Source: Yuukianura sp. NJ FZ-2021 (taxonomy: Eukaryota). From it: DNA of 64,000 bases. Positions within the stretch are counted from its first letter, which is position 1, and each line of letters opens with the position of its first letter. The notes beneath the pieces are model-generated. The model was not told the DNA's origin and did not search any database. It saw only the letters and a list, made by a program, of their open reading frames with translations. The position numbers and the translations under genes are program-made. Where the stretch lies: assembly GCA_046563655.1 (NCBI GenBank), contig CM102286.1, positions 7,192,001 to 7,256,000 of the forward strand. Reading direction: 5' to 3'. This document shows, one piece after another, positions 16,882-64,000 of this stretch.

Positions 16882-17048
16882 GGTTCCAGGTAATTTGGTC
16901 GGAATTGGATTGGTCGAAAACGCAGATGTCGGCAAACCTAACCTAACCTAGCATTAGAAAGGTTAACCAAACCTAACCTAAATCCCATATACGCCTGCCG
17001 ACCTCTGCGATTCCGACCAATTCACTTCCGACCAAATTACCTGCTACG
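16882..17048. mobile_element. MITE-like element with ~50-bp imperfect TIRs, internal CCTAA units and a 7-9 bp target-site duplication
   Basis: CAGGTAATTTGGTCGGAA...GCAGATGTCGGCA pairs with TGCCGACCTCTGC...TTCCGACCAAATTACCTG. Flanked by GAATCCTTC at 16873-16881 and 17049-17057. Confidence 0.75.
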
Positions 17049-17237
17049 GAATCCTTCCATTAGTTTGTAAGATTTTGGTCGTAACCCTTTGCGACTGCTC
17101 TTGCGTTGATGTGCATTACCGGCTTTTACCTTCAATAGTGGATACATAAAGTCGATCAGCCGTGGCTTATTATAGCATTACATTACAGACTGAATTAAGC
17201 GGCGGAGGAGGATAGAGTATATTAGACGTGCAGCAAG

Positions 17238-32764: not shown

Positions 32765-33338
32765 TTTTTTTTTTTCGTTTTTTTCACTTTTTATCATGTT
32801 TCAAACGTTTTTGGCACGTTTGGAGCAAAAAAAAAATTTTGACCCCAAGGGTCCCCCCTTCCCATTTTTTTTTGAGAATCTGGACTCGAAAATTTTTTAA
32901 GTACAAAAACTGAAGTGGGCACCCCTGACAACCTCAAAAATGACCCTTATAAAAGTTGTTTAGAATCATCAGTGGAGTATTTTTTGTCCTATGGACTATG
33001 ACCCTATGACCACTCCCTGAGGTCAGAGGTTAACTCGAAAATTTCCCCAAATTTTTTTTGGATTGACCTCTGACCTCAGGGAGGGGTCGCAGGGTCATAG
33101 CCCACAGGACATAAAATACTCCCCTTAGGATTATGGACAACTTTCGTAGGGGTCATTTTTCAGAAAATTTTTGAGTCCAGATTCTCAAAAAAATGGAAAG
33201 AGGGGACCCTTGGGGTCAAAAAAATTTTTTTGCTCCAAACGTTCCAAAAACGTTTGAAAAGTGATAAAAAGTGCAAAAAACGAAACAAAAATTTTTCCAA
33301 AATTTTGACCAAAAAACAGAAAAAAGTTTCATAGCCCC
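32765..33338. mobile_element. Foldback-type palindromic element (arms ~270 bp); partial related copy at ~32300-32410
   Basis: TTTGGAGCAAAA..TTTTGACCCCAAGGGTCCCC..GAGAATCTGGACTC..TCCCTGAGGTCAGAGGT is mirrored by ACCTCTGACCTCAGGGA..GAGTCCAGATTCTC..GGGGACCCTTGGGGTCAAAA..TTTTGCTCCAAA; centre ~33045. Confidence 0.85.
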
Positions 33339-37343: not shown

Positions 37344-40300
37344 CTAGCAAACCCGGTTCGCTACCCTACATACAAATCAAATAATCCAATGAATAACTTT
37401 CTGCTTCAAATTCAGAACTTAGGCTGTATGATTAGGCAACTAGAAAATCTCTAAAATTTTGACCATTTCGCTCAAAATTCTAAATCTTTGGTAAAATTAG
37501 GATCGGAAAATATAAAAACCAGTTGTATGTCTTAAAACATGCGCAATTTATTACTACAGTAATAAGTACCTCTCTGTATCTATTACAATAAATTTGAAGG
37601 AACAGGAGTATAGCCAACATACCTGGTTTGGAAGATAGTGTCTGCATTGTTGTTTATCCAACTAAACAGGACTATGCTCAACAGGAAAACTATTATACCG
37701 GATACAAGTGTCAGGAGTTCCTGAGTCGGTGATACTTTGAGGAAAATCCGAACTCGAAGGTCTGACCAAACGGACTCCGACCATGTTGAGAATCGCCCGC
37801 TCTTCCAATCGTAGTTGTCAACATCATCGAATGCCGGACTAACTGCCGGAGTGACTGTTGCCGTGGTTTGATAGCAGCTCCCGTTGATCCAGATGTACTC
37901 GTATATCTAAAGATGGAAAAAGAAAAAGTTGTAAGGTGGAGTAAAAAAAATGGCTAAGATATTTTTTGACAGAAATCGTCTAAACATTTTCAAAGGTCAA
38001 AACACTTCCACAATCGATGGGTTACCTTCGAATCCTGTTCTCCTCTGTGGCAGTTTTCCTTTGCCCTACTGCTAAGATTTCCTTGGTGATATCCCATGAT
38101 ATGATGAGTGATGGTGGTCAACGCGTTTATGCGTCTATTGACACTAACGTAGAAAGACTTCGGTAACTTGCTCAGTTCATTTGCATCATCATTCGTCACT
38201 GTTTGAAAGAGCTGGCATCCAGGGTTCTTCACATAACATTCCAAAATATCATTGACCTACAGGATACAACGAAATTAGCAATCGTCACTCCATGCTTAAG
38301 TATAAAAGTTAATATTTTCGTTACCAATGCCGGATTCGCAGTGTTGTTAAAAAATGGAGGTCTGCTTCCCACAATCAACTCCTCAATCGAATTTGCTACG
38401 GTCGCAACTAATTCAGCAATTCCATTGACTGTTAAACTTGTGACATCCGAGTAATGAATATTGTGTAGGTCATCCAGAATACTGTTGTAGTGCCTGGAAT
38501 GAACAAGAACATGATCTGCTTTGTGACGGAAACGATATTGGGTTACTGTTGCGACTAGCGGGAAAAGTCAATTTTAAAAGTAAATCTTGTCTTACTTGTT
38601 TTTGAATTCTTTATGGTGATTCGTAAACACAATCCCAGGAAAGTCAGGATTCTGAGCAAGGAATGACTGTAATGATGAAGGTGGCACTCCCATTCCGGTG
38701 TCGTTTGCAACGACGATTTTTGTGGATTGCCGAAGCTTACTAAACTTATTATACAAGTTTTGAAAGTCTTCATCGAACGCGGAAGAATTCCAGTTACGGT
38801 GGATGTAGTAAGAATCACGCGGCGAAGACAGTGAAAGTTGATTAAACTCGATGTAGTACAAGACGTCCTCCAAATGAAGCGATGCTGGGAAATTGCTCGA
38901 CTTGTCTGAACACAAAAGAGTACCATCCTCAAAGCGCTGCTACATATTGAATCTATCAGAATTAAGGTGTTATAAAAGTTGAACTTCACCTGGATCAACT
39001 TTATAAGGAAAGTTGTCATTTGCCATGTCGTATACGATACGGCTGGAGCCAATGTAGTCAAAAGCTTCGCCATTAAATAAGATGAAGTACACATTTGAAA
39101 TCTGCGCCAAAATGTTAGATGTTACATTAAACTTCAAACCGAACACCAGTAAAAGTAAAATATTTTAGTAACATCCCAATGCTATATATCTTACGTTGGC
39201 ACTGGTCTGAAGATGGTCCTTCAGTGGCGCAAGTTGTTTCGCTAAAGCAAGTACAGCAGTTATTCCTGTGGCGGCGGTGTCTGCCCCGGGTGAAATTTGG
39301 TCGAACATTGACGAAGCGTCGAGTCTTGCAGCGATTATCACGACCGACCTAAGCCGCATTTGAAATAATACATAGTAGAATCTTGTGAATGTCAATAACT
39401 CAACTCAATCGATACTCGATGTTCGATCAACGATGAGCTACAAATTCTTACCTTTTCTTATAAGGTTGGGCTTGACTACGGGGCACAAGCGTTGACCATA
39501 CATTTGCATCTCCCAATGGGTCACATACAATATCTAAACAACAATTAAACAATAACTTTTCACTTTCGCAATTTCAACTGCTGGTAGCTGGGTATTTATA
39601 TCCATAAAAGTGACTACTCACTTGGACTGACACTAACTTCGCTTAATTTGTTCCGACGGATACAAGTAGGAGTATCAACGGCCCCGCTCATGAAACTTAA
39701 CAATTCAGCAGCGCACAACGGCCAGTCCCTTGGCGTACCATCCGCATGTGGTTGATTGTATTTACGGTAGCACTATAATAGTTCCAAACATTGCATACCA
39801 TGGTGAATTTTAATTAAGACAACTAAGAGAGTCGTTGATTGGTGTTGCAAATGAATGACTCACATCCAGCAAATAATCTTTTGCTGTATCGGAGGTTGCG
39901 TAGAATATTGGAAAGTTCCAATCACGGAACAAAATCTCGTTCCCGGGGCTATTCCATTTTGGACAAAAGTTGGCATAACTCGCATTGGTGTAGAACCCTG
40001 CAGAGCATAATAACAAAACAAATCATCCTTCAGAAAATGATGATGTTCGTATTGTAATTAAACTGATCCTACCATATCCTCGATTGGGACATTGCTTGTC
40101 CGGTGTGTATTCAACAATGTCCTCTTCTGAGCTTTCATTTCTCGCTAGCAAAACTACACCGCTAACACGTCCCAATGAATTCTGGAATTCTTCCAATACC
40201 TCTGGGTTAAACCACTTCATATGCAGCAATGCGATATATGGAGAGTGCGGGCCCGTTTTAACAATCCAGTCTACATCGGATTCTTTTTCTATCAAGTGAA

Positions 40301-40691
40301 GAACGCCAACACTCCCACCTTGCTTCGCTGAAAATTAAACAGAACAAAAAAATGAAATCGTAGCCAACAGTGGTTGATGACAGGTGACTGAGGATTACTA
40401 TTTTTTTAAGTTAAGTAGGAGGTGAGAATTTGTTAAATTAAACAAAAGTGAGATAAAATATAACTCACAGCTGCATCCGAACTGATGAGTACCGTTCATT
40501 CGACGGAAGCAGGCGTAACTATCTGTAATCTTCTCATAGATTCGTTGGCTAACAACAGTCTCTCGGTCATTCGCAGCGCCGGAGCATTGCAGCAGTGTCA
40601 AAACTAGGATAGTCGCTCGAATTATTTTCTTCGGTATGGTGCTGATGCTTTCACCATCGCCATGCACACCAAAAATTAGTCCTCCAGACAT
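37344..40691 (-). CDS. NCSTN: Nicastrin (gamma-secretase subunit), multi-exon
   Basis: CFRRMNGTHQFGC, WNSPGNEILFRDWNFPIF, AARLDASSMFDQISPGA, LFNGEAFDYIGSSRIVYDM (DYIGS motif), PPSSLQSFL, STWSESVW then a TM segment. The last exon (37344-37365, RVANRVC*) is inferred. Confidence 0.95.
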
Positions 40692-41017
40692 TCTCCCCTC
40701 TTGACTGCTCGACAGTCCGTTAGCAGATTTCCGGAACAGACAGGAGTCGAGTCTGTAGAGCCGAAGTCTCAACTATAAAAATCTTTAACGTCAAGTCAAC
40801 GTGAGTAGACGATGTATTTAACGTCGGATCGGAGGGTGGAGATGGGACACGCTTTCCTAAAAAAAAATCAAAGAAATAAACGTTCATCAGAATTGATTTT
40901 TAAAATAGTAAACACAAAATAAAACAATGAAATGATATCTGCTGCATCATGCACCTGCCGTGGACGCGGTGCACGCAGCAGTATAAAATTTATTTGTGTA
41001 AATCTGAAAGTATTTAA

Positions 41018-41590
41018 GGACGGGTAAGAGGCAGCGTTTGTTTACGATTTGCTGTCAGCCATTGCCGTTAGTAACAAAGCAAAATCACTGCGCAAACGTG
41101 CAAAAGTCGGCACTCTTTCGAATGGTTGACGAATCAAAGTTTTTCAAAGTACAACATTTCAAGTAATCTGGGGCTCAACAATCAACGTGTTCCCATGGAG
41201 ACGGCTAATTTCAGTGCCGACTTTTGCTAATTTGCAAATTACTATAGAATTTCATCTACTTTGGCTAATTAGATGTTCATTATAAGACCTAGAAATGCGT
41301 TTGAGGTGTCTAAAAATCCGGAAGACCATGGCGCTTAAGTCGCCGTAACCAAATTTCCGAATTTTTGTATCATTCCACGTTTAGAAAAAATTGAACTTTG
41401 TATTCAATTTTTAGTATTATTTCGCAACAAAAATTCAAATTCCGATCACTGCTCTGTATTCTACAGGTAATGACGAATTTTTAGAGCCCTTGTACACATT
41501 TCTACGATATACCTGTGAGTTCTAATTAGACCTTAAAGTTAGTTAATTTGAGGCGAAACGAGACACCCCGTTGCCATGTGTGATTCCTTC
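41018..41590. mobile_element. TTAA-flanked non-autonomous DNA transposon (Kolobok-like), copy 1
   Basis: 573-bp segment is the reverse complement of 60621-61194 over its whole length; both copies are bounded by TTAA and have purine-starting imperfect termini (GGACGGGTAA.. / ..TGATTCCTTC). Confidence 0.85.
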
Positions 41591-42673
41591 TTAAGTCTAG
41601 TCTAAGCCGCTGGGCTGATCAATCCACAAATAAACAAGGCATTGGCATTTGGTTCTTGTTTTTCTTTTTTTAAATTTAAAAGTTAATTTAATCAAGTTTT
41701 CGTGTTCGAGCACCCTACCTTTTACATTGCACGGTTACCTTACCACGAATAATACGTTCATTTGAATGTTGAAACTTCACTTCAGATTGTTTTGAACGTA
41801 CAACTTTGGACTGTTTGGACTGAATCTAAGTGCAGGCAGAAGCAGATCTTATCTTGTAATCAACTGCAATCAATCCGTCATAAACCTAATTGTTGTCTCT
41901 TGTGGTTGCCGAAGTGTGATTGATTCCTGATTCACTTGAAAACCCCCAGCCTATCTTAAAAACTGTCATCAACCTTATATACTAGTTAGTATTCGGCGAG
42001 GGAAAACGAAACCTCTCAATTCAGTTAAACTAAACATTCGCCTGAAGGGGGGCTGACTAATACTCATAATTATGACTATTCTTCTACTATCTGAGTAATT
42101 CTGAAGTTGGTAGTTCAAGGACTTCATACTGTGGAGTAAATATTGGCCTTATACAATACTTTTTTAAAGTCATCCAAGACTAATGCGTGCCTCCTTAAAA
42201 TTCTAACGTTGTTTTGTTCTGAAATTAATCGGCCAGCAGAAAATCCAAGGAATGTGTTATGGTACTTACAAAATTCTGAACACTCTGAGGATTAGGCGCA
42301 GCCCATAGACATCCTGTGTATCCGCTTTTTAGGGAGGCCCTTTTCAAGAAAAAAATACTGGGACGAATCTGGAAAAAAAAACGGAAAGGGAAACGTAAGC
42401 TAATCTAACGTTTGACTTTTTACAGTGACTTGTCCAACAAAGTTCTGAAAACTGATCACTCTTACGGGAATCAATTGCATCTGGGCCGTGTCGTAACGTC
42501 AAATTCTTAAATCCTACTCTACCCGATTACCGGTAATTCATTGCTGTGGTTTTAAAAAGTTCGTTTTTCAACATCAAAGAATAGTACTTTGTACATATCA
42601 TCTAAGTGTTCATCATCGTTCGTTATATGGTATTTTGTTGTACTTTTCCAGCTCTAATCGTGTCGAAGGAGGA

Positions 42674-43507
42674 ATGGCCAAACACCATCCTGATCTAATA
42701 TTCTGTAGGAAGCAGCCAGGTGTTGGTAAGGAAGGAGTCAGAGTTAAATTACAAGCCGAAATGATACACTAAGACTAAATAATACCCCGCGCACCGATAG
42801 GTTAGGTATGATGTAACGATGTGTATAAAATAGTTCCTAGCCGTTGCAGTAGTTACATCAGATTTTGTGTCTGATGTATCTTTGGTTCTAAAAGATCTTA
42901 TTAACTTTGAATGGAATTCTTCTGAACATCAGAGTAATCAATCACAGCACCGAAGTTACCTATTTATCCATTTAACTTTCTGCACAACGTTTTACTGCTA
43001 GTGAAATATGTAGTTTTCATGTTTTACATGTACAATAACAACGCTCTCGTTTCTGGCACAGACGTTGTTATATCCTTTCCGTAATGTTGATTAATATCGC
43101 TTGCGTTGTTAACATTCGCTTCTTCATATTTTTAGCTATAGGCCGACTCTGCGAAAAATGTGATGGGAAATGCGTTATTTGTGATTCATATGTACGTCCT
43201 TGTACATTGGTCCGAATTTGCGACGAGTGTAACTACGGGTCATATCAAGGACGGTGTGTGATTTGCGGAGGACCGGGAGTATCCGACGCTTACTATTGCA
43301 AGGAATGTACGATTCAAGAGAAAGACGTAAGATAAATACGAATTATAGCTGAAGTTATTTGGTTCGGCAAAGGTTTTGCAATATATTAAATTATATGTTG
43401 TTTTTTTCTTAATTTAGCGAGATGGTTGCCCGAAGATTGTCAACTTGGGTAGCTCAAAGACTGATTTGTTCTACGAACGGAAGAAATACGGATTTAAGAA
43501 GAGATAG
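42674..43507 (+). CDS. PHF5A: PHD finger-like domain protein 5A (SF3b subunit), 3 exons
   Basis: [110 protein letters not shown]. Confidence 0.99.
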
Positions 43508-44102: not shown

Positions 44103-45683
44103 ATGTCAATCGTCCCCATTATTTTCTGCGTTCTTATTTCTCATTGCGTAGATGTTTTCAGCGTTAACCCAATGACGGCGACACCCTTGTCATCCTACGA
44201 AGTTGTTATGGGTTGGAGAAAACTGGAATTCAATTTCAGTTCCGCCAGTATCGACGAGCAGAGAATTCTGAAAGCCGACTACGTGCCGGAAAACAACATT
44301 TTTACTGGAATTCAAGTCACTGAAGACAGAATATTCCTAGCAATTTCACGCAGGCGTGATGGTGTGGTAGCAACGCTAGCCTTTGTTCCTTATGATTCAA
44401 GTTCGATGACTCCAAATAGCCCGGCGCAGCCGAAAAGTGGCAGCGGCAACCTTCTGAGTCCTTACCCAAGCTGGGCAGTAAGTTCGGGAATATTCGCTTA
44501 ATTAATTGGTACTGAACAAGATTTTAATTGAATGTTTCATTTTCAGTTACAGAAAGTTGGAGATTGCAAGGCTTTGCAAAATGTTCAGACCATTCAGAAG
44601 GATGTGTTTAAACGTCTATGGGTCATTGACACTGGCATCCACTCAAATTCCACTGGTGTGGTCAAATGTCCACCGAAGCTGGTGTTAATTGACTTGGAAA
44701 CTGACAACATCGTCTTTTCATACGATTTTCCGCAGCAAGTGGTTGATCGGAACAGGAATTTGCTCAGTAACCTTGTCGTGGGATGTCAAAATCTGACGGA
44801 TAGAGACGACTGTTGGGCGTACATTTCGGACTCTGCCGCAGCTACCCTTGTAATTTTTCATTTACGAAATAAACAATCATGGCGTGTGCGTCATCCGACG
44901 ATGATGGGCAATAGTTCGGCCAACGTCATTACAATTTTGGGTAATTTCACTTTTAATTACACGAAAATTACACAACATGTAATAATTATATTTGCGAAGC
45001 ATCATTCAAGCAAGCATGAGTATGAACTAAATATATGAAATGTGTTTTTTAATGTTACAGGTCATAAGTACTCCTTCGAGTCGAGCATTAATGGACTGGC
45101 ATTGTCGCCTTTCGACCATGGTTTCGATAAAATCTATTTCTGTGCCCTCAGTAGCTACAACCTCTACGCTGTGCCAACGCAAATCCTGAAATTGGCTGGA
45201 GCCAATGGATACTCGTCTGATCTGTTGAACGCTGATGTCACGTTTGTCGGAGCCAAATTCTCTCAATCCGATGGGCTCGAAATGACAGCTAACGGCCTAC
45301 TACTATATGGCGACCTCTCCAGCAACGCCATCAGTTTTTGGAACACATCGCATCAAACTGTTGACCCAGCAGATGAAGTGCTCTTAGTACAAAATGACAT
45401 TGATTTGCAATGGATCGATTCCTTTTCTTGTGACGAAAATGGCTATATCTACGTAACGACAAATAGGATGCAGCGGGCTTTAGCCAACAGTTACGATTTT
45501 CAGGACGTTAACTTCAGAATTTTGCGGATTTACGTTGGGTCAAGATGTTACCAATACCCTTCAGTAGACGACGACTGGGAGAAATCCCATGGCACAAGCA
45601 GCGGCAGGAAACCAATTCACTTCATATCATATTCCGCTTGGTATTTGGTAGCTGCAGTTGTAATTGTTCTAATTTTGAAATAA
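44103..45683 (+). CDS. Yellow / major royal jelly protein family, 3 exons
   Basis: Signal peptide; YVPENNIFTGI, LSPYPSW, RLWVIDTG, CPPKLVLIDL, AYISD, SWR, INGLALSP, YVTTNR and VNFRILR motifs of the yellow/MRJP family. Confidence 0.93.
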
Positions 45684-45783
45684 AAATGTCTTCAATGCTA
45701 ATATTTAGTAAATATAAATGAATTACATATAGTGCATGCAGGTATTATGAGGCGTAAAAGTTACTTACAACAACTGGTTGGTA

Positions 45784-45900
45784 CCGTGGGGTCATTTGCT
45801 AACAAGAAAAACTTTTCCCGCGACCCTTTTTTCTCCTTTAACTCGATGAGAAAAAAACGTCCATTTGAAAACTTTTTCTTGTTAGCAAATGACCCCACGG
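45784..45900. mobile_element. Tc1/mariner-type MITE (TA TSD), 117 bp
   Basis: TA|CCGTGGGGTCATTTGCTAACAAGAAAAA ... TTTTTCTTGTTAGCAAATGACCCCACGG|TA, perfect 28-bp TIR. Confidence 0.9.
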
Positions 45901-46304
45901 TAGCACAAAAGGAAGAGATAGAAGAGAGATAAGAGAGACATCTATCTGTGGAATACATTTGCGTGTGTGAAAACTCCTGTCTGTAGTACACACATGGAGC
46001 GGAATTTGCTTGGAAAATGTGTGTTGCGATTGCGAATGTTCCGCGCTAATATACTCTTCATTAAACCTCTTTTTTACTTTTACTTTGTTCACTCTTGTAA
46101 TTGTATTTGTAACCTGAATTGCTCCTGATTGATACTGCACTGACTGACTACTACTGTGAACTGTTTGGATCCTCCATTTTTCATTGTTTGGTTTCTAAAA
46201 CTTTGGTAACCAATACCGTACTCCTGCTCTGCACTGTTACATCGTTGGTAGCTAGCAATACACTATTTTATGCTGACGGAACACTATCCTTCTTCGATAG
46301 ATAG

Positions 46305-50400: not shown

Positions 50401-53400
50401 CGGAAATCAAGCTTGATTTCACAGTCTGGATCTCCTGGCTCGTGGTCATGAATTGTCACGGCAGCGTCAAGCCTGTCTACTAGAAATCTCATAACGTCAG
50501 GAATTTTCCGGACCAGAAGTGTCAGTGCAGTTGTTCCTGCTTTTGTCCTAAAAAAATGACAGACCAGGAGACAAATAAATGTAGGTGGCAAAAGCGTGTA
50601 AAACGTGTGAAACGTATTTTTTAAATTATCTTGCATCACGGTAACCTTGAGGTTCACATTATTCTGGTAAGGCGAATTTGTCTACCTATAAATCACTTCT
50701 GATGTGGTGGCAATTAGCCAAAAGAGTTGGCTGTTGGCACACTTCTACGTGATAATGTTGTAATGTCGTTTTTGAAAATTTTTGAAATGCTTACTTTACT
50801 GTAACATCGGCACCGTATTTTAGAAGGATTGACACACATTGGGATGTTTCGTTCACAGCAGCTAAAGAAAAATAGTATCAAAAGCGTCATTTTCACTTCC
50901 TGAAAACTAATCCTTTCTTAGATCGAATCTTTAGTACTACCGTAAACCTTCTCAAAATGCAACTCCCTGAGCCTGCGTAGTTCGAATACTACCGTAAACC
51001 CTCTCAAATTGCCACTCACGTGTTTTTCTGGTTTAATTAGCGTCAAATTACGTTTGATTACCCAAATATTCTGATTACGTGGTATCAAACGTATTCGCCC
51101 AACAAAAGCGTTACCAGTTGATGTGTGTAGTGTTGATCCTCGACCAAACACTGAAGTTACTATATGGTGTCCCGTCGAAAAAAATTAATTGCAATTTGTG
51201 AGGATCTACCGTAGCAGTGTTTTATACTCCGAAGTGAGCTTTAACATGTGGACTGGTTCTATTGGTATGTCCGTATGTCAGTTTGAAGGAATAATAAGTT
51301 ACCGAGATGGAGGGGCGTGTACCCAAAGTTATCCTGGGCGTTGATTTCGGCATTCGTTTCCAATATCACACGAAGACATTCTGCAGCCCGCGACCCTACA
51401 AAATATTTTTGTTAAAAAAGAAGTTACTTTATCATGCTGCTTATAGTTTGTAATGGAAGTGGCATCTTCTGTCGATACTGTATAAGAAATGGCTAAATTA
51501 AGAACCACCTCGGTTGATGGCACAGTGTAGGGGAGTTCTTCCGTCTCTGTCTTTTGCATTTGGGTTAGCACCTCCTTCCAGTAGAACGCTTGTCGCTTCT
51601 GCATCAACACTCGCTGCTACATGGAGAGGCGTGTGACCTTACGTCAATGGAAAAAAGATCTTCACATTAGACAAGTTTCTGAGAAATTTCGTGTAACAGA
51701 GAGGATAAATGGAGATTGATGGGGTGCCAATTTTCTGCTTCATCGCCTCGGTGTCATTAACAAAGACAAAAGCTGACATTGTGAAAAAACTCCTTTGACT
51801 CCTTACCTCTGGCATCTTGCATGTCACAGAGAGCTCCAGCTTTTAACAAAATTTTAATGCAAGCTGGATTCCCTTCTTCCGCTGCAATGTGCAGAGCGGA
51901 ACTTCTGTGGTTACCCTGAAAAAATAATCGCTGATTTTGAATTTTCCAAATTTTGATTTGAATACTAGTTTTAAATATCGGTTGCTGAATTCCGGAAAGT
52001 AATGGACGGAAGCAAGCTACATGAAGCTACCTTGCATAGGTTTACATCGGCGCCATAGTCCAGCAGCAGTTGAAGACAGGCAGCGTCTCCAGTGGAAGCT
52101 TCATCAAAGAAAACACAAATTGGCATCACAATTTGTAAAATCCCGCAGCGCTGGCACTAGAAAGTGGAAGTTTTCGCACGCGATTTCATAAAGCTTGAAT
52201 ATTTACCTGCAACATGCAGTGGATTTTCACTGAAAATGATTGGAGGATTTTGTTTTGCTCCAGCTTCCAAGAGGCGCTTGACGCAGTCGTATGATCCAGC
52301 TTGTACTGCCCAGTGAAGCGGAGCTAAAATTTTTAAATATCAATTTTTAGAATTTTAGTTTTGCAAATCTGGATAGCAGAAGTTGTGACTTTTTTCAGAA
52401 AATTATCTGGGTAGGTTAGGAGAACTGGCGGTAAATCATGTCTAAATTCTTTGTTGGCTGATTGATGGTTTGACATTTCAAAGAAGCTTTACAAATTCCA
52501 AACGAAAATACCTCAAGACATTTAAGAGTTCCAAGACGCTGCTTGTAAACATATTCAGAAGATTTAAAAGAGAAAAACCACGTTTGGTTTAGCTTTGGGT
52601 TTGACGATGGACAAAAGTTTGTGATGGATTTTGAGGCTTACTTTTCCCAACTTCAAAACCAGCGTTTACATTGGCACCCGCCGTTAGAAGAGCTTCAACG
52701 GAACCGAGAGATCCAGATGCTGCAGCGCACATGAGTGGCGTTGCCCGTTCGAAAGTATCACAAGGATCCACCTCTGCGCCTTTAAAAACAGTATGAAAAA
52801 GTTCTTTTCTTTTCAAAGATCTTTCAAACAAATCCGTTAGTGGTAACGGAAACGAGTCGAGACGTCCGGATGTTTTTTGTTTTAAATTTCCTAAACAAAC
52901 CTTTTTCAAGTAGAATTTCCACTGCTCCGGAGTGACCCGATGCTGCTGCAAGATGTAAAGGCGTTCTGAAATCCAAAATCGAAATTGACAAGTAGACAAG
53001 TAAAAGACAAGTAGTATTTGTTGGTGAATTTAGTAACCAATTTGTTAAATCTTATTGTCTGTCACTCGTTGAAAAATCTGAATTCTCAAAATTTAGAAAG
53101 GAGTGGTTTTCTAAAAGAAAATTTTTTTGCACAAAAATTGATCTGTGTAATTTGGAAGTTCTTGTAAGTTTTGCGGCTTACCTTCCTTTGCCATCTCGGC
53201 AATTGATGTTTTGAACATTTTCGCTTGTGCTTAGCAGTGTTTGGAGTGTGTCAACTTGGCCATTCCAGGCAGCTTCCAGTAAGGAGGCTATGCCTGGAGT
53301 AAGTTCACGAAAACTTTCCAAAACACTATCTTCACCCCAGACGCCATAAGAAGTAAAGAATAACGAAGTTTTTCTTGTTGGACCCCTTCCGTCTGAATTA

Positions 53401-54738: not shown

Positions 54739-55999
54739 GGCTTGCAGGATTAATTTGAATGCCTGAAGTAGTATCTGGTGTTGTGAATGTGAGATGTTTC
54801 ACAAATTAGTTAAATTGACCTCTAATGTTTTTTAATTCGTGATTCATTGAATTCGCAAACAAGTTCTTGGTAAGGTGAATGGTAGACACTGAAAGATGAG
54901 GAGGAAGTGGTTGTTTGCGTCGTGAATTCTCAAAGTTAGAAGCAGCAAAAAAGCAAAAGCTTTGGGTAGGAACTACTTATTCATCTTATATTGAATGCTG
55001 TCTTCATGTATTCTTCATACGAAAATGCAATTCTGCAGATGACTTTATGAAAAGTTGTTAATCACATAAATAAATAAGTTTACCCATCGTGATAGAAAGT
55101 TTTTACCGACTTCACATTTTCGTGGCAGCAAATGTCACCACAACTCACAAACTGTGTAGTAAAGGTGATGAACAATAAAGGAGCATTAGAACGCGAATTG
55201 TTATAACGAACGAACGAATGGGTATAAAAAAAAATAACGTTAGAGTAACCTGTTCGAATTCACGAATGATGCTGACTTGCGAATACTTGTTCAAACAAAG
55301 AATTTAAATATGATGGATATTGAGAGTTTTTTTAGTCCTTTTGCTCCAACAAATTACAAAAACTTTGCACGCCACTTCCAAAACAAACTGAATTCTTGAA
55401 CTACAATAAGGATCGGAATGTGCTCCAATTTGAACTTCACTAAAGCTATAGGAGAAGGATTTGCGGTAATCGTAAATTGAATGAAGAAATTTAAATGCGA
55501 GGAAAACCGAAACTGGATTTTCCGTTCCTTATTAATACGAGGCCTTTAAACTTTAATGCTCTACACCCAGTTCGTCGCCACGTACTGAATAACCGAATCT
55601 GACAAACCCGAAGATCTTCACGGCTCGAGTTTTTTTGAATGAAGCACGAATACAAATATAGATCCCCTCAAAGTTTCTTAAACTGTATAAATTAAGCGTC
55701 GTTTTAGAACAGTTCAGTAAAGGAAACGCTTTCTTCAACCTACTAAAACCCCCGAAATCTGCAAATCCGGGAGGGACTCCCCGCTCAGCCACATTACTTA
55801 AAAACCAGCGTGAAAGAAATTGCATTCAGTTTTTGGGATGAAAACACTTTTCTAGTCAATTCCTCAATTCCCGGGCATATTTTACCGTCAACGACTCGTC
55901 TCCGTAAAAAGATAAGAAAGAAAACCTCAGAACGGACGTGAAGCCGCACTTGGTTCTACCGCATTCATAATTTACGTAGTATTAAACAGTCCATTTGGA

Positions 56000-56410
56000 A
56001 GAATCCCAGTTGTCATACTCTGATCAGCTCTAAATATTTCGATGATTATGATCATGATTTTTTTTTTGCATCCAACACCAACTACGCCAGTCATCTTCTT
56101 CGTAATCGCTGGAGTTTGGGGAATCAGCGACGGCATTTGGCAAACTCAAATCAACTGTAAACTTATTCGCTTTTTTTTAAGCGAAGACTTGTTTCTGAAT
56201 AAGTTGAAATTCCCTGACTGTCTTAGCTCTCTATGGCGTCCTGTTCCAGAAAAATGAAGAAGCTGCTTTCAGCAACTAATTACCGCCTCTGGGAAAGTAT
56301 TGGTTATCATTGCCTACGTCGAAACAACTCAAGTTTGTGTAAAACTTGACATTTTACTTGGCGTTATTACTGGGAATGCTTGGCTATTTCACTACTGAGA
56401 TTTAGTCAGA
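56000..56410 (+). pseudogene. UNC-93-like MFS protein, 3' fragment pseudogene
   Basis: FFVIAGVWGISDGIWQTQIN|ALYGVLFQKNEEAAFSN then stop/frameshift before YRLWESIG (UNC93 AAFSNYRLWES motif); further frameshifts follow and no 5' exons were found. Confidence 0.85.
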
Positions 56411-57208
56411 TCTAACAAAAAAATAAATATTTAGTTTTTTTATACTTGCAAAGAATGACTTTGTTTTTACTTGTGTGTGCGTTGTGATTAGTACAATACA
56501 TTTATTTAAATTATCTTAGCGAGTCTTCAAGACTCACTGGCTAGGGGTAAGGTAGGCGTATGGATATCTGTTTGGGTTTGTCCAAAAGTTTTGATCGAGG
56601 AGGTTGATAGGCCTCTGATGCATTTGGAAAGAGTATATCCCTATCCCATGGTACTGATCGTGGACGATCAGTCCACAGTGGATTGCACTTGATCAAATCC
56701 AATTTTTGAACTGTATCAAAAATACTTCCATCAAATAGTAGCCGCATACTAATTCCAATTTCATTATCATCAGAGAGTTGTCAAGGTGATTTTGTAGGTT
56801 TTTGCTCTAACTAGAGAGGAAATATGGCCTGATTTCAACAAAAAATTTGAAGCCAATTTGCTGGCGGACGCTGGCGGACAAAACCGCTTGCATTTGAAGG
56901 ATTAAGGCTTGCACCTACCATGGAAACTGTGGGTGAAAATGAAGTGAACAATTTTGAAGTGATTTGTTCAGCGTAGGAATGTCATACAGTGATCCACAAT
57001 ATATCAAAGTTTGGGAAATTAGTTGTGTGTGTTATAGGAGGACAGTAGTGCTCTTTACAGAAATTAGCTATTCGTGAAACATGAAACTGCAAGAATAGGA
57101 TGCTGTGTGAACCATCCTTAAGTTTAATGAATTTCAGTGAGTTGTCAGGAGAAACGTTGGCAAACATTGGCTTCAAAAATTTTGTTTAAAATGGCCTTCA
57201 TTTCACAT

Positions 57209-58550
57209 CTAGTTAGGAAAAGTTTTGTTTAAAAATCTTTGATTATCATCGTCACCATAGTTGTCTTTTAAAGTAAGACTTTTGAGATTTGGAAATTGTG
57301 CTGCCTGTAATGGACTCGAGAGGAAGGGTTGACTCATATTAGTCATATTATCCCAGTTCGGTTCGCCAAATTCCAGTTCCAGTACTTCTAGATTTCGCAG
57401 AATTGGGATTGTAATGGTTGACCATTCTACGTAGAGCTTCAATCTGTGAAGTGTTGTGGAAGTACATTTTAGTAAAGCTAGAAGCATCTCCGGAATGAAT
57501 CGAGCAGTACGTGGTATCCAGGCGCCATCCACACAGAAGAGGTGTAAAGTATGCAGAGTTGGCAGTGGGTGTGCGATTAACTTTTGAATTAGAGGAATAT
57601 CTCCGCTACTCAATTCAAGCTCGACGGCATCAAAATTTTGAAGCAGTCGCAAGTATTCCGTTGCTTGAATATCTGAAGTTGCTCTCACACCGAAACTGCA
57701 TTCGACAACTTGAAGTGCCGGTGTACTGGAGAACCATGATGAAAAATCATCAAATTCGATTTTCTCAGTTTGAAAATCCAAAGCCGGCGATGGCCATTTC
57801 GCTTCCTTTGAGCAGGGCGTGACTTCAATGTACTTCAGTTTAGGAAGATGGAATGATGAGTTCAAAGCAACCTCCGTGGAGTTTCCGTCGTTGTATCCGT
57901 AAACGGAAAGTTTTTCCAAGTTTGGTGCCTGGGCCAGTAAAACTTCGAAGACCTCATCTGCATCCCCAGCAAAGGAGGGCTCCAACTGTATTACGTAGTG
58001 TTTGACATATGGTCCCACGGTATCGGCCAGTTTCTTGAATGAGGCAAGAGTCGGAGGACTGTGACACGTTTCGTTGCTGATTGGAGATTGGTACGAGCAC
58101 AAGTACAATTCGAATTTGGAAAATGGGAAGTTTGTGCCTTGCAGTCTGCCTTCCATCGTTTCCAGAAACTGTTGTATTTGTTTGTCGACTTCTTCCCCTC
58201 CGCAGCGGATAGTGCGTTCAGGAAAAATTCGACCGGTAGGCCTTTCTGGAATATACGGTCACTGGTTATTTCGTTCCAAGCTCTGCTAACTGTACGCCAT
58301 GTTAAAAGATCCTTGGGGTCATCCACATAACCAAGTATCTTGAACAGCACCTAATATTAATCGAAACGTTTGTAAGGTCTTTGTTCAAAATGCTTCAATT
58401 CATTTTATACTCAAACGAAAGAACATTCCCTAACATTAAAGTTAAAAAATAAGCCAAATAGTAAGCTAAACTTTACAACACAACTGCATGGCTCACCTCA
58501 TTTGGAAGATGTGGATTACTGCCGTAAGACGTCTGTAATGGCAAATTCAT
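57209..58550 (-). CDS. F-box/LRR-like gene with a single-base frameshift near 58195-58227 (3' half of the chimera; own ATG at 58550)
   Basis: MNLPLQTSYGSNPHLPNE|VLFKILGYVDDPKDLLTWRTVSRAWNEIT (F-box). The body continues in the shifted frame (EVDKQIQQFLETMEG...FPFSKF, APNLEKLSV, LPKLKYIEV, FPNLKSLTL). Coding-like remnants extend to ~56541. Confidence 0.7.
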
Positions 58551-59179
58551 TGCCAAAATATGGTTGGATTCTACCAAACGGGGCCCAGATGAAACATGGT
58601 AGAGACCCTGAGAGTTTAGATTCCCGCTTGGATCAGCATCCCCCATCAAAAACGCGGACGGCTCTACCGGAGAAATCTAAAATATTTTAAATTAAAAAAA
58701 ATCATCATCAGTTTTTGAAAGTCATCGATTTAAGTCATAAATAGACAGCTATTCATTCGTAAATGGTAGTTACAGTGTACTTACCGTATCCCCAACGAAA
58801 GTGCAGCCGTAGTCCGAAGGCTGCAATGCGCTCGTAGACACGTTATGTGTAATTTCAAACTGAGGACTCAGCGATTTGCTAACAATGACCCTTGCGCCTT
58901 CGATGGACTTTGAAAGTAATTCTGAAAATTGAAGAAAAATTATGAGCCGTCTTCGTCCGATTATAAAGCTTCCGTTAAGGATACATTACCTGTGCATGGC
59001 TTGTGCAGCTCTTCTAAAATTCCTGGGTTATCTTTGACTCTAGGGTCCACACGCAATGCAGTATCAGGATGCGCTGGAGGGTACAGACCAGGGGACGTCA
59101 AGTTCGTCATAGGTAGCAGTTGTGGCAAAATCGTTGGATCAGCTTCACATTTTGCTGTCTTGACTAGTCTGTTTCCCAT
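58497..59179 (-). CDS. Inverted partial TOM40 duplicate fused in frame to F-box exon 1 (chimeric exons)
   Basis: Exons 59179-58990 (190 nt), 58921-58785 (137 nt) and 58676-58497 (180 nt), all GT-AG with no stops. TOM40 homology ends at ~58590 and the frame runs on into the F-box first exon. Confidence 0.8.
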
Positions 59180-59496
59180 TTTCCAAAATTACTAAGATCA
59201 AGAAACGATGTGTCTTAGATTCTTTGATTGAATTGAACTCTCCTCGGAGAAAACTCAACCTCCTAAACAACATAGGATATTATTATGAAGCCGATCTCAA
59301 GCATACTGCTTAAACTAAATGAAAGCGAGCAGACACTTACCAAGAAAATGATACAGGAATTCGGTACACAGAAAATTGGTCTGATTATGTACTAAAATTA
59401 GATGACTGTTTTTCATATAAGGAAGATTAGGAATGTTATTGTGAAATTGATTTCGTACTAACGTAATTAGTTCAATTCGATCATGTCCGACCGCGG

Positions 59497-60616
59497 TTTA
59501 CCCGGTGACGGGGGGTTTGTTGAGCGGCTGACTATTTCCCGAAAATTAGCAGATACGTCCGAGGTCCGAATCGCAAAAAACCGCGATGTTACGGGGTAGG
59601 CTTAATCGCAGAATCGTCCGAAAATGTTTAAAAACGTAAAATGGGCTAGTCTAATTCTAGGAATCATCAGATATTTAAAAACGCAAAATAAATTAAGGAA
59701 ATATCAATTCTAAAAAAAAATGAAAATTTTGGTATGAAAAAACAAATAAGTAGTTTGTTTGTTTTTTTTTACAAAATATAGCAAAAAACGTGAATGTCTA
59801 ATTCGGATGTTGGATAATGGATAATTGGATATTGTATAACCTGGACTATTTTCTACCTCAATTTAAGTATGATACCGCTGGGTACACTTGTTTTATTCCT
59901 ACAGAATTTTTTGAAAGAGAGAATTTTGACCTTTTTTTTTTGCAATGGTGCTTTAAAACAAAGTGCTCCAGTACTGGAAAATTTATGAAGCATGGAGGAG
60001 ACTATTTCCCACCTAATCTGACCTTTGACCCCACTGGAGCAACCTGTTTTGAGCAACCAGAATTTTTTTGAATTTTTTTTGTTGTAAAACCTTAAAGTTT
60101 TTTTGAAATCTTACCGTGAAAAAGGTGCTCCAGTGCCAAGGTAAATAGAATACTACTAGGTAGTGCGAATGGAAAGTTTGTTTGGTTGCCATGTGGAAAA
60201 AAAAATGACGTCACCAGCTGAAAATACCGGAATTCTGCCAATTATTGGTGGTGTCCTATAGAAACCCGTAAGACACATCTTGTTTACATAAATGCCAGCG
60301 GGTTCCAATTTCACGATTACGGTATTTTTCAGCTGGTGACGTCACAAACAAAAAATTGCGTTGGTTGCTATGGGCCCCATTTGCAGGGGGCTGCTCCAGT
60401 GCTGGCAAATTTACGGAAGGTGAACTGGAGTATTCTCAACTCAATTTGACCTATGCACCAGAAGCATCTTGTTTTAAGAATTAGACTAGTTCATTTTAAT
60501 TTTTTAAACATCTTCCGACGAGGCTGGGGATTAGGCCTACCCCGTAACATTGCGTTTTTTGCGATTCGGACGTATCTGCTAATTTCAGAGGAATAGTCAT
60601 CCTCTCAAAACCCCGG
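59497..60616. mobile_element. Non-autonomous element with long (~160 bp) imperfect TIRs and internal direct and inverted repeats
   Basis: AATTAGCAGATACGTCCGA..ATCGCAAAAAA..ATGTTACGGGGTAGG..CTAGTCTAATTCT is mirrored at 60478-60616. Internal IR TGACGTCACCAGCTGAAAATACCG (~60206) / CGGTATTTTTCAGCTGGTGACGTCA (~60320). The right end abuts TTAA. Confidence 0.8.
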
Positions 60617-60620
60617 TTAA

Positions 60621-61194
60621 GAAGGAATCACACATGGCAACGGGGTGTCTCGTTTCGCCTCAAATTAATTAACTTTAAGGTTTAATTAGAATTCACAGGT
60701 ATAACGTAGAAATGTGTACAAGGGCTCTAAAAATTCGTCTTTATCTGTAGAATACAGAGCAGTAATCCGAATTTGAATTTTTGTTGCGAAATGGTACTAA
60801 AAATTGAATACAAAGTTCAATTTTTTCTAAGCGTCGAATGATACAAAAATTCGGGAATTTGGTCACGGCGACTTAAGCGTCATGGTCTTCCGGATTTTTA
60901 GACACCTCAAACGCATTTCTAGGTCTTATAATGAACATCTAATTAGCCAAAGTAGATGAAATTCTGAAGTAATTTACAAATTTGCAAATGTCGGCACTGA
61001 AATTAGCCGTCTCCATGGGAACATGTTGATTGTTTTGTTCCAGCTTTATTTGATATGTTGTACTGTGAAAAACTTTGATTCGTGAACCATTCAAAACAGT
61101 GCCGACTTTTGCACGTTTGAGCAGTGATTTTGCTTTGTTACTAACGGCAATGGCTGACACCAAATCGTAAACAAACGTTGCCTGTTACCCGTCC
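60621..61194. mobile_element. TTAA-flanked non-autonomous DNA transposon (Kolobok-like), copy 2
   Basis: Inverted copy of 41018-41590; TTAA at 60617-60620 and 61195-61198. Confidence 0.85.
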
Positions 61195-61762
61195 TTAAAA
61201 CACAATGATACAAGGAGGACATGTTCAACTCAAAATTACAAGCTACATTGTGCTATCATGACGATAACTTTTTTCCGTGTTTTTTTTCAAGTTTAGTATA
61301 AACTCAAGATGTAAATCCCGCATTCGGCTACTGAGATGAGATGAGATGCTGAGAAGGCGACTATTGTGTTGCTTTCGCCCAACTCTGTAGATTAGCAATA
61401 GACTTAAGTGATGATGAAGCCGGAGAGTGTCTTTTTGTTGTACACCGTGTGTGCTGAAGAAAGCAGGCACTCACTTGTTCTGTTCTTTCTGGTGTCCGAT
61501 CCCAAAGTCTATTAAATCCTAATCTTCCTATCCGAAAAACAGATCTAATTTTATAGTAACATAATCCGACCAATTTTCTGTGTACCGAATTCCTGTATCA
61601 TTTTCTTGGTAAGTGACTGCTCGCGTTCATTTAGTTTAAGTAGTCTGCTTGAGATTCGTAATAATGTTTTGTGTTTTTTTAGGAGGTTGAGTTTTCTCCG
61701 AGAGTTGAATTCAATCAAGGAGTCTAAGACACATCGTTTCTCGATCTTAGTAATTTTGGAAA

Positions 61763-63239
61763 ATGGGAAACAGACTAGTCAAGACAGCAAAATGTGAAGC
61801 TGACCCAACGATTTTGCCACCACCACCACCTATGACGAACTTGACGTCCCCTGGTCTGGACCCTACAGCGCCTCCTGATACTGCATTGCGTGTGGACCCA
61901 AAATTCAAGGATAACCCAGGAACATTAGAAGAGCTGCACAAACGATGCAAAGGTAGTGTATTTTTAACGAAAGCGTATAACCGCACGCAGACTGTAATAA
62001 ATTCCCTTCAATTTTTAGAACTACTTCCAAATCCTGTCGAAGGTGCGAGGGTCATTGTTAGCAAATCGCTGAGTCCCCAGTTTCAGATTACACATAACGT
62101 GTCTATGAGCTCATTGCAGCCTTCGGGCTATCGATATGGCTGCACTTTCGTTGGGGATATGGTGAGTGCACTCTTAATACCATTTATGATTCAATAGCCG
62201 TTCATTCATTCATATTGATGATTCATCATCATCACCAATATAAAACAAAACAAATGGTGAGTGATTTTTTATTCCATATATTTTAGATTTCTCCGATAGA
62301 GCCGTCCGCGTTTTTGATGGGGGATGTTGATCCAAGCGGAAATCTAAACTCTCAAGGTTTCTACCATGTTTCAGATGCGTTGAAACTTAAATGGGTAGCA
62401 CAAGTCAGCAAAAACAAGTTTCAGAACTTGCAGACCTCATTTGACTATAAAGGCAGTTGTTATACCGCAAGCGGTAGTATCGTAAACCCAAGCTTTCAAA
62501 CCGAATCTGGTAAGCGAAATCGAGCTTTTAATTTACTGTTCCTATCTTTATCGTGGTACCATCCAAAGCTTTTATTCTTCAATTACTACACAGTGTATAT
62601 GTATTTTTTAGTCCTTGGTGTTCTGCAATACCTTCATGCTGTTACACCGCAAGTGGCATTGGGGGGTGAAGCTGTTTACCAAAAATCGCCGGCAATTCCT
62701 GAAGGCTCAATTTTAGGGTTCACTGGATCCGCGCGATACTCCGGTTGGTAATCACCACTTCACTTTAGCAATTTAATGAATGTTATTATTTTTGATTGAT
62801 ACGTTTTATGTGCTTCGTCCAGATCAATTACATACAGTTAGCGGGTTTTACGGCCAACCAGGTGTAGGAATTTACGTATACCGAAGAATCAACGAGGAGT
62901 TACAAGTTGGTGTGGAAATTGAGAGAGTTCAACAACAACTATCAGCTTCTATTGCCTATCAATACGACCTACCTAAAGCCAATTTTACAATGAAAGGTTC
63001 GTTCACTTGTATTTCGAAATACTGCTTCAGTAATTACTAATGTACAATGACCATGACCAAGGTCGCTACTAATAACGCCGTGTTTGCTTTTTGTAGGAAT
63101 GATTGACAGCAACTGGACTGTAACTGGGATGTTGGAGAAGCGGCTTCTTCCTTTGCCTTGCTCATTTGCTCTCTGTACATCAATTAATCACAAAAGCAAC
63201 CAATTTAGAATGGGATGTCAAGTTGCATTAGAACTGTAA
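61763..63239 (+). CDS. TOMM40: Mitochondrial import receptor subunit TOM40, 6 coding exons
   Basis: NPGTLEELHKRCK|ELLPNPVEGARVIVSKSLSPQFQITH..SGYRYGCTFVG, GDVDPSGNLN, QYLHAVTPQVALGGE, LQVGVE, IAYQYDLPKANFTMK|GMIDSNWTVTGMLEKRLLPLP..INHKSNQFRMGC. A 5' UTR intron lies at 61609-61682. Confidence 0.96.
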
Positions 63240-63506
63240 CAAAACAAGTCCAAAGTCCATGTAGTTAGTCCATTATACTTCCACTCGCCAATATTAGCAA
63301 TGAACTGTAGCCAAGGGATAAAATTTGTTAAGTCTGATTTACTTAAAACCAACGCTTTTCTATGGAACCAAACTTGATTTTTCTTTGTACCAAAGAACTT
63401 GATTTGATGACTTCATAAAGGATGCCTTTGCCTATTGAAAAACTAGTAGAACTGAATGGAGGATTTGCCAGAGCAAGAAGATATAAAAAAAATGAAAGTT
63501 GTTAAC

Positions 63507-64000
63507 TTAATACTGTAAACTATGCTTCTTTCCTTCCGTTTTGTGCGAATGTGGTCGATGAAGGCTTCCAGATCCTGCAGAGCGTTTACTGTGTGAACTC
63601 TTGTCCTTGTGTGGCTTATTGCTCAAGAGAGGATGTGTATCTAATTTTATAAGAAACAGATTGGGCATTAATATGAGACGTGATTTTAATTCTATTTTGC
63701 GATTGATTTCTATAAGAAACTGACCGTTGACAGGAGCTCCCTCTAAAGTGATATCATAGGTTTTAGCCTTCTTCCTTCTAGGCCCCTGCGATGGGCTGGA
63801 TTCATAGGCGTGATGTCGCTTTCCATGGTGATGATGATGGTGGTGATGGTGCTGAGGATGGTTTTCGTCTTGGGTGGGTACATGAAAGTCTTGTACTGGC
63901 GGAGCCCAAGAATCGTCGGGATCTTCAACTTCCGGTGCGATGGGCAGAAAGAGGAGAGCGTTTGGATCCTCTTCTTCTTCGTCGGAACTACAGAATGCCG
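63507..64000 (-). CDS. 3' end of an unidentified gene (acidic, poly-His, basic low-complexity tail); runs off the window
   Basis: Open frame ...SSDEEEEDP...HPQHHHHHHHHHGKRHH...PRRKKAK...APVN, phase-1 intron ~63641-63724, then DTHPLLSNKPHK...HSLQY*. Confidence 0.7.
   Translation of the reverse strand, partial: AFCSSDEEEEDPNALLFLPIAPEVEDPDDSWAPPVQDFHVPTQDENHPQHHHHHHHHHGKRHHAYESSPSQGPRRKKAKTYDITLEGAPVNGQFLIEINRKIELKSRLILMPNLFLIKLDTHPLLSNKPHKDKSSHSKRSAGSGSLHRPHSHKTEGKKHSLQY

Follow-up and report, generated by a model that had tools for sequence, protein, structure and literature searches.

A probably decaying chimeric locus: an inverted partial TOM40 copy in frame with a disrupted F-box gene in Yuukianura sp. 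NJ FZ-2021

Can the 5' part of a TOM40-like gene, copied backwards into the leader of a neighbouring F-box gene, become the beginning of a new fused gene? This question is raised by a 64,000-nt stretch of DNA from Yuukianura sp. NJ FZ-2021 (CM102286.1, assembly GCA_046563655.1), hereafter called the window, to which all coordinates refer. A sequence-only reading had proposed that an F-box gene on the minus strand captured the start of TOM40, and that the fusion protein might bring an adaptor of SCF (Skp1-cullin-F-box) ligases to mitochondria. The results partly support this proposal: the fused structure is real, and the interpretation built on it holds only in part. As read from the DNA, the chimera is tidy in its construction and broken at present. 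We consider it probable that the locus is a decaying chimera, which would have arisen by a template-switch-type insertion into the F-box leader and would now be a pseudogene or null allele.

The inverted copy was confirmed by a list of inverted pairs, by self-BLASTN and by base-by-base alignment (Table 1). Eight inverted pairs lie in 55000-64000, and five of them (I1-I5) are collinear, linking 58590-59390 to 61559-62373 with 81-95% complementarity. Self-BLASTN of the window returned a single match between parent and copy (61517-62373 against 59432-58590), which is 84.3% identical over 871 columns with gaps counted. Overall identity of copy and parent is about 84-92%, and the homology is far beyond chance. 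The coding part (414 aligned nt) differs by 38 mismatches and one gap event, namely the in-frame 6-nt deletion that had already been named as the sole coding indel; the non-coding part (415 nt) differs by 68 mismatches and 10 gap events, and the introns alone (243 nt) by 53 mismatches and 7 gap events. GT and AG are present at every junction and the frame is free of stops, as first described. The copied segment comprises 857 bp, that is two leader exons, coding exons 1 and 2, and 29 codons of exon 3; its far end falls inside an exon and abuts unrelated unique sequence.

Two further statements about the 5' end of the copy fared differently. A copied 5' untranslated exon with its intron had been recognized, and GT and AG are indeed retained in the copied leader intron; it is from these conserved sites that we infer the first two copied blocks to be putative 5' untranslated exons and their intron. 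The capture of TOM40 5' regulatory sequence, by contrast, finds no support. In the base-by-base alignment the homology extends upstream of the first leader donor by no more than 92 nt, so that the parental upstream sequence beyond the first leader exon was left uncopied. The spliced leader of the copy holds a single upstream ATG at 59416, which is relevant if transcription begins beyond that position.

On the strength of its Porin_3 match and its kinship to solved pores, the parent is assigned as a TOM40 or eukaryotic porin gene. GT/AG and phases fit for its first three coding exons, and three of three parent exon open reading frames (ORFs) match Porin_3 (Pfam PF01459) at profile positions 15-65, 66-128 and 187-233, the best with 35.6 bits against a cut-off of 28.4. 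A word-indexed search with the third coding exon found one relative, P0001 (333 residues), 88% identical over the exon. Residues 1-333 of P0001 are covered by the parent locus in tblastn, and P0001 matches the solved TOM40 structures 9etm_A (E 1.3e-77) and 7ck6_A (human, E 1e-65). A tblastn search with P0001 finds only the parent and the partial copy as TOM40-like loci in the window. Both P0001 and P0002, a homologue of the F-box gene discussed below, are JGI/IMG proteins predicted as full-length and intron-free on contigs of ~2 kb, and they probably derive from assembled transcripts of a related insect. P0001 was also run against a metagenome collection, from which its own contig and that of P0002 are absent, in search of an orthologous locus or outgroup DNA; of 157 pattern matches none was confirmed.

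Across the breakpoint the reading frame continues. A fusion model with the minus-strand exons 58990-59179, 58785-58921, 58497-58676 and 57991-58350 has GT/AG throughout and fitting phases, and encodes 288 amino acids from the ATG at 59179 to the stop at 57991, with 138 TOM40-derived residues and a linker, just as had been proposed. Read in the TOM40 frame, the stretch 58497-58589 begins with this linker of 13 codons, and the ATG of the F-box gene lies 40 nt beyond the breakpoint. For transcripts starting further up, three ATGs precede that of the F-box; the one at 58646 is in frame, those at 58597 and 58639 are not. The presence of an F-box in the fused frame was also borne out: the exon from 58350 matches PF12937 (F-box-like) at residues 2-32 (29.8 bits, cut-off 24.3; E 5.1e-07), and the start of the motif would, by reading, sit in the preceding small exon. 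F-box motifs as such bind Skp1 in SCF ligases; for this part Skp1 binding is putative. A continuous open frame with usable splice sites therefore spans the junction, as in a chimeric gene; the coding sequence of the recipient is not intact: its frame shifts within 58190-58221, and an insertion of 479 bp brings in a premature stop.

These lesions were recognized by comparison with a homologue of the F-box gene, of which exactly one was found. The gene is read in frame A before the shift and in frame B after it, the latter forming an open stretch of 349 codons that begins at 58258 and is closed by the stop at 57209. Among 1374 candidates of similar length from a word-indexed protein search with frame B none reached E<=0.001, and an exhaustive search of 1.84 billion representatives returned four proteins at E<=0.001; one of these, P0002 (453 residues, E 3.2e-41), is a true homologue, and the other three match short repeat stretches only. 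Residues 7-48 of P0002 align with frame A residues 1-43 (58350-58222; 20/43 identical), residues 60-350 with frame B from 58189 to 57266 (111/309 identical, E 4e-52), and residues 366-397 with 56738-56622 (18/39 identical, E 4e-7). A read-through with X at the shift is collinear with P0002, 159 of 409 columns being identical. P0002 has only six residues before the F-box exon and is without a TOM40-like part.

The body of the F-box gene resembles leucine-rich repeat (LRR) proteins in its predicted fold. Pfam LRR families score 18.2 and 11.2 bits on it, below the cut-off of 27. The AlphaFold model of frame B, built from a two-sequence alignment (pLDDT 68.5, pTM 0.59), predicts alternating strands and helices; with this model Foldseek gave 25 matches in the PDB at E<=0.001, of which those inspected are LRR proteins, and the top match to the model is an LRR F-box ligase (TMq 0.45). 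Atlas look-alikes of frame B, at scores of 0.90-0.94, are unnamed and F-box-named fungal clusters and serve as a lead only. A tblastn search of the window for paralogues of the F-box gene gave self matches only at E<=0.01. An uninterrupted ORF of 497 codons at 34110-35600 (+) has an F-box-like match below cut-off (residues 17-47, E 0.0071) and reaches E 0.003 and 0.35 in single comparisons with the F-box/LRR gene, of which it is a very distant relative at best; it may be a further member, this one intact, of an F-box family that evolves fast.

The frameshift lies 44-54 codons into the F-box exon, and the 76 residues that follow it in the 288-residue product are out-of-frame former LRR codons. 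The sequence-only reading had allowed that this shift might not be real, in which case a product of about 549 residues was expected, and this figure is reproduced arithmetically when the frameshift alone is read through. Relative to P0002 the break is a true one and no plausible intron accounts for it; a sequencing error is conceivable. Insect introns are rarely under about 40 nt. A search for an intron that might rescue the frame gave 73 frame-restoring GT..AG pairs of 40-400 nt; none lies inside the 32-nt interval, and 0 of 16 distinct donors match the donor consensus GTRAGT.

The second lesion revises the 3' end of the gene, which had been placed at 57209. That stop (57209-57211) is supplied by the 479-bp insertion, and 73 further homologous codons follow behind it at 56544-56762. 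The insertion has inverted arms of 51 nt (pair I7, 56807-56857 and 57166-57216; 75% alike, or 79% over 52 aligned columns) and a direct repeat on either side, and 56763-57250 thus shows the terminal inverted repeats and target-site duplication of a MITE-like element (miniature inverted-repeat transposable element). When the insertion is read across, collinearity with P0002 is restored with the same 16-residue spacing. An intron was considered and rejected here as well: the sole GT and AG near the ends give the wrong phase, and reading of the sequence found no frame-restoring GT..AG pair. With frameshift and insertion together, an F-box protein with substrate-binding repeats is impossible as assembled.

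Has the TOM40 part been preserved for its own sake? With the P0001 protein as outgroup 137 columns are comparable. Changes confined to the copy branch account for 16 of them and changes confined to the parent branch for 2; the outgroup alone differs in 27, 5 are ambiguous, and the other 87 show no change. Polarised in this way, the column classes indicate that the duplication took place after the P0001 species had split off and that the copy is relaxed. The pairwise ratio of non-synonymous to synonymous divergence (dN/dS) of copy and parent is 0.45, from 15 synonymous and 23 non-synonymous differences at dS 0.169; by a hand estimate that uses the protein outgroup only, 16-21 of the 23 non-synonymous changes are assigned to the copy, and the copy-branch ratio is roughly 0.6-0.8. 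None of the three copy exon ORFs matches Porin_3 at E<=1, compared with all three of the parent, and the 6-nt deletion hits a barrel motif common to the parent and P0001. These observations suggest that the TOM40-derived residues evolve almost freely. The TOM40 barrel consists of 19 strands. According to an inferred mapping the copy spans about profile positions 15-88 of 271 in Porin_3; its homology ends after 29 codons of exon 3, and the C-terminal strands are missing. By this measure only about the first quarter of a barrel is present, from which no barrel could form.

Whether the fused frame was nevertheless in use can be approached through the odds of its survival. Neutral simulations were run with 20000 replicates per setting, where d=0.085 per site corresponds to half of dS. 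The 389 codons of the F-box gene (frame B and the C-terminal part) stayed stop-free in 1.7% of neutral runs at d=0.085 and in 13% at d=0.04. This low neutral survival, together with a single frameshift, suggests that selection maintained the F-box frame over most of the period after the duplication. A 140-codon parent stretch, used as a stand-in for the TOM40-derived part, stayed open in 35% of neutral runs at d=0.085, and the eight splice nucleotides survived with a simulated probability of 0.49. In the copied coding part there are 0 frameshifting indels in 414 nt against 10 indel events in 415 non-coding nt, and an in-frame junction with an open 13-codon linker is estimated to arise by chance about 1 in 6 times. 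Taken together, the chance factors would amount to roughly 0.005-0.02, a value in which the indel term is highly uncertain. So small a joint chance favours a frame that was held open because it led into the F-box protein, its residues being free to drift. We hold selection for a translatable F-box to be somewhat likelier than chance survival as the cause, and the fused frame may once have been in use.

These results can be combined into the following scenario. The F-box/LRR gene (-) and the TOM40-like gene (+) would have been head-to-head neighbours facing away from each other, with about 435 bp between the ancestral F-box ATG and the first TOM40 leader exon (40 + 78 + 317 bp, by arithmetic without the copy and the repeats). 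A single rearrangement would then have placed an inverted copy of the initial 857 bp of the TOM40 gene 40 nt upstream of the F-box ATG. A left flank, an inverted copy of a nearby downstream segment and the resumption of the original sequence form the signature of template switching or fold-back repair, and an event of either type, as generally understood, is presumed here. As the copy lies in sense orientation to the F-box gene, any transcript starting upstream runs through it; if the F-box leader exceeded 40 nt, the insertion fell within the transcription unit, and the gene's own promoter would drive the fused transcript. The copied ATG would have opened a frame continuing into the F-box, after which the TOM40 residues drifted while frame and splice sites stayed whole, as expected under selection for F-box translatability alone. 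Later decay would comprise the frameshift, the MITE-like insertion that removes the last 73 codons, and two repeats landing just upstream. The TOM40 piece would on balance be a passively carried leader or N-terminal extension, and not a demonstrated targeting module.

Several points weigh against this scenario. Measured against dS as a neutral standard, the coding part of the copy has diverged as neutrality alone would predict, and the neutral survival of the TOM40 frame against substitutions together with its splice sites (0.35 x 0.49) is about 0.17; the indel argument hinges on the rate assumed for coding DNA, and the one-time presence of the TOM40-derived exons in the F-box mRNA is putative. 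Short homopolymer runs lie near the frameshift interval, and the shift may stem from an error of sequencing or assembly or reflect a polymorphism in the sequenced individual, which would leave the gene less broken. The arms of the insertion are only 75-79% alike, with no other copy in the 64-kb window, and a protein without the last 73 residues might still work. Lastly, the sole homologue P0002 is distant (36-39% identity).

Some of these points would suit a locus that was never chimeric, in which a dead TOM40 fragment sits upstream of an F-box gene with its own start within or just after the fragment, the continuity of the frame is chance, and the lesions of the F-box gene arose afterwards. 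A copy that drifted almost neutrally (16 against 2 changes, and a barrel motif lost by the 6-nt deletion), the absence of any remaining Porin_3 signal, the uncopied parental upstream DNA, the chance values of about 0.17 for the frame and about 1 in 6 for the junction, and the F-box gene's retained ATG at 58550 would all agree with such a history. We nevertheless regard it as unlikely. A breakpoint 40 nt from that ATG would squeeze an own start into this interval or into TOM40-derived sequence, with the upstream ATGs 58597, 58639 (both out of frame) and 58646 (in frame) ahead of the F-box ATG, and an F-box frame under selection after the duplication had to be transcribed. The copied coding part (414 nt) is free of frameshifting indels, while the non-coding part took up 10 indel events in 415 nt; this contrast and the joint chance of roughly 0.005-0.02 point in the same direction. 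At the other extreme, a working gene of TOM40 N-terminus, F-box and LRR body could exist today, the frameshift being an assembly error or a rare allele and the truncation being tolerated. Its continuous frame and canonical splice sites, kept in the copy despite a dS of 0.17, the F-box domain above the Pfam cut-off and the 349 open, predicted LRR-like codons of frame B are what such a gene would display. A targeting role is conceivable too, as a passenger protein can be directed to mitochondria when it is fused to a beta-hairpin from one of their barrel proteins (PMC4931251). The section headings of the same paper, however, name the last hairpin as the necessary one (PMC4931251), and the last strands are missing from the copy. 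Two independent lesions have to be explained away: the 479-bp insertion is no base-calling error and removes a part conserved in P0002 (18/39 identical), and the frameshift strips all repeats from the product as assembled. In addition, the TOM40 residues are without sign of constraint, with a deletion in the shared barrel motif, and repeats lie 78 bp upstream of the copy. A gene working today is therefore quite improbable in our view, and the narrower idea that the frameshift is an error or rare allele and that the first barrel hairpins bring the SCF adaptor to the mitochondrial surface or import machinery is more doubtful still; mitochondrial targeting by the TOM40 part is speculation.

The 288-residue product might itself be functional, for instance as a Skp1-binding decoy made of TOM40 N-terminus, F-box and out-of-frame tail, given its 288 open codons and intact F-box. 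This is highly unlikely: the last 76 residues are former LRR codons out of frame, frame B is still stop-free for 349 codons, which marks the shift as recent and not as an established design, and no homologue of such a form turned up, the exhaustive frame B search having given one true relative among its four matches at E<=0.001. Inverted duplications can also be produced by chimeric long reads, in which case the copy would be absent from the genome. Here 829 aligned nt of the two arms contain 106 mismatches and 11 indel events, a divergence too great for fold-back artefacts of an assembler, which would be expected to be near-identical, and the copy breaks off within an exon, where unrelated unique sequence follows; we take a misassembly of the inverted copy to be practically ruled out. 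A decaying chimera thus accounts best, in our judgement, for a locus whose features are collected below.

Table 1. Features of the fused locus, its parent gene and adjacent repeats (window coordinates)
Feature	Coordinates	Strand	Basis or details
Inverted partial duplicate of TOM40-like 5' part	58590-59433	-	homology, splice sites, open frame, divergence
Putative leader-exon copies	59341-59433, 59180-59262	-	homology to parent leader exons
Copied ATG	59179	-	opens fused frame
TOM40-derived coding pieces	58990-59179, 58785-58921, 58590-58676	-	138 codons in total; homology and open frame
Native F-box gene 5' end	58497-58589	-	unlike TOM40 parent in alignment
Its leader, ATG and first coding exon	ATG 58550; donor after 58497	-	39 nt leader after breakpoint; 18-codon exon
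F-box exon, frame A	57994-58350	-	PF12937; P0002 alignment; non-ancestral frame after 58222, stop 57991
Frameshift interval	58190-58221	-	32 nt against 11 residues in P0002; frame A to 58222, frame B from 58189
LRR-like body, frame B	57242-58189	-	P0002 alignment; fold model; fold matches
Insertion in coding exon	56763-57250	.	direct repeat, inverted arms, collinearity with P0002 after removal
Insertion body and direct repeat	body 56772-57241; repeat 57242-57250 and 56763-56771		9-bp identical repeat
Cut-off C-terminal coding part	56541-56762	-	73 codons 56544-56762, stop 56541-56543; P0002 366-397 match
Parent TOM40-like gene	61517-63239	+	ATG, frames, splice phases, Porin_3, tblastn
Parent putative leader exons	61517-61608, 61683-61762	+	homologous counterparts of copied leader exons
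Parent ATG and coding exons	ATG 61763; 61763-61952, 62019-62161, 62287-62509	+	three more exons, end about 63239
Foldback/MITE-like element	59512-60614	.	inverted arms about 148 nt, 81%; pairs I6 and I8
583-bp repeat	60617-61199	.	93.7% identical, inverted, to 41013-41594

Between the copy and its parent lie the two repeats of Table 1. The foldback element (~1.1 kb) lies 78 bp upstream of the copy's 5' end and contains a smaller nested inverted repeat near 60206-60344. The 583-bp repeat, probably a transposon fragment, sits between this element and the DNA upstream of the parent, a short way ahead of the TOM40 promoter region; its other copy lies between a nicastrin-like and a PHF5-like gene. 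Self-comparison of the window shows three further self-complementary stretches at 32767-33291 (525 nt), 45779-45905 (127 nt) and 16879-17051 (173 nt), 71-80% alike, which are probably additional foldback elements. Elsewhere Pfam recognizes other insect-type pieces: a GFA domain (767-1177), a homeodomain (3589-3906, -), an LRR protein (10914-12174, -), a Meis/PKNOX N-terminal domain (29319-29867, +), nicastrin (38232-40772, -), PHF5 (43039-43332, +), yellow/MRJP (44532-45680, +; two same-frame ORFs split by a stop, probably a short intron) and ankyrin repeats (51760-53029, -).

If our interpretation is true, an inverted template-switch duplication between head-to-head genes can place a start codon and exons into a neighbour's leader, and selection on the downstream protein alone can hold the added frame open while its residues drift. 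Were the fusion protein made and brought to mitochondria, it would constitute a new, lineage-specific link of protein import and ubiquitination, born by template-switch insertion between head-to-head genes; as it stands, the locus reveals no new mitochondrial ubiquitin-ligase adaptor. It also advises caution in calling open fused frames new genes, since two lesions and the absence of the C-terminus, invisible in the raw sequence, came to light here through comparison with one distant homologue. No TOM40/F-box fusion is described in the titles and abstract openings of the papers listed by a literature search on Tom40, F-box proteins and chimeric genes.

The components of the locus can be compared with several known systems. 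Classic examples of chimeric genes are jingwei and Sdic. In Diptera such genes arise by partial duplication or exon shuffling and likewise join a 5' fragment with start codon and splice sites to a neighbour in a fused frame, most products being short-lived; tandem duplications are reported to have been surveyed in Drosophila populations (PMC4069613; PMC5460883; PMC2211543). Unlike these chimeras, the duplication described here is inverted and lies in the leader of a head-to-head neighbour, its recipient is broken, and it is known from sequence alone. With F-box/LRR (FBXL-type) SCF receptors the predicted protein shares an N-terminal F-box followed by a putative strand-helix repeat solenoid, and the best fold matches of frame B include the LRR F-box proteins 7sa1_B, FBXL17, TIR1 and D3/MAX2; unlike these receptors it has almost no sequence relatives (one in 1.84 billion representatives), Pfam LRR scores below the cut-off and TM-scores of 0.3-0.47. 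Mammalian FBXL4 is a mitochondria-associated F-box protein. Yeast Mdm30 and Mfb1 are reported to be of the same kind (PMC2063881; bioRxiv 10.1101/2025.10.13.682092). Through these proteins SCF adaptors can act at the mitochondrial surface, the function imagined in the sequence-only reading; none of them is listed with a TOM40 piece, and the gene here is broken. Duplication of a TOM40 gene as such has a counterpart in Drosophila tomboy40, reported as a full-length Tom40 paralogue (PMC1839131; PMC7560327), and paralogues of this type are complete genes able to form a pore, unlike the copy analysed here. Duplicated pseudogene fragments and MITE-disrupted genes share with the locus a relaxed copy, a frameshift and an insertion into a coding exon with direct repeat and inverted arms. 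Unlike in typical fragments of this kind, the copy has kept its frame and all splice sites and the long frame of the recipient is stop-free, which speaks for a recent rather than an ancient death. Altogether the locus belongs to a known class, that of a partial-duplication chimera combined with a gene disrupted by a frameshift and a MITE.

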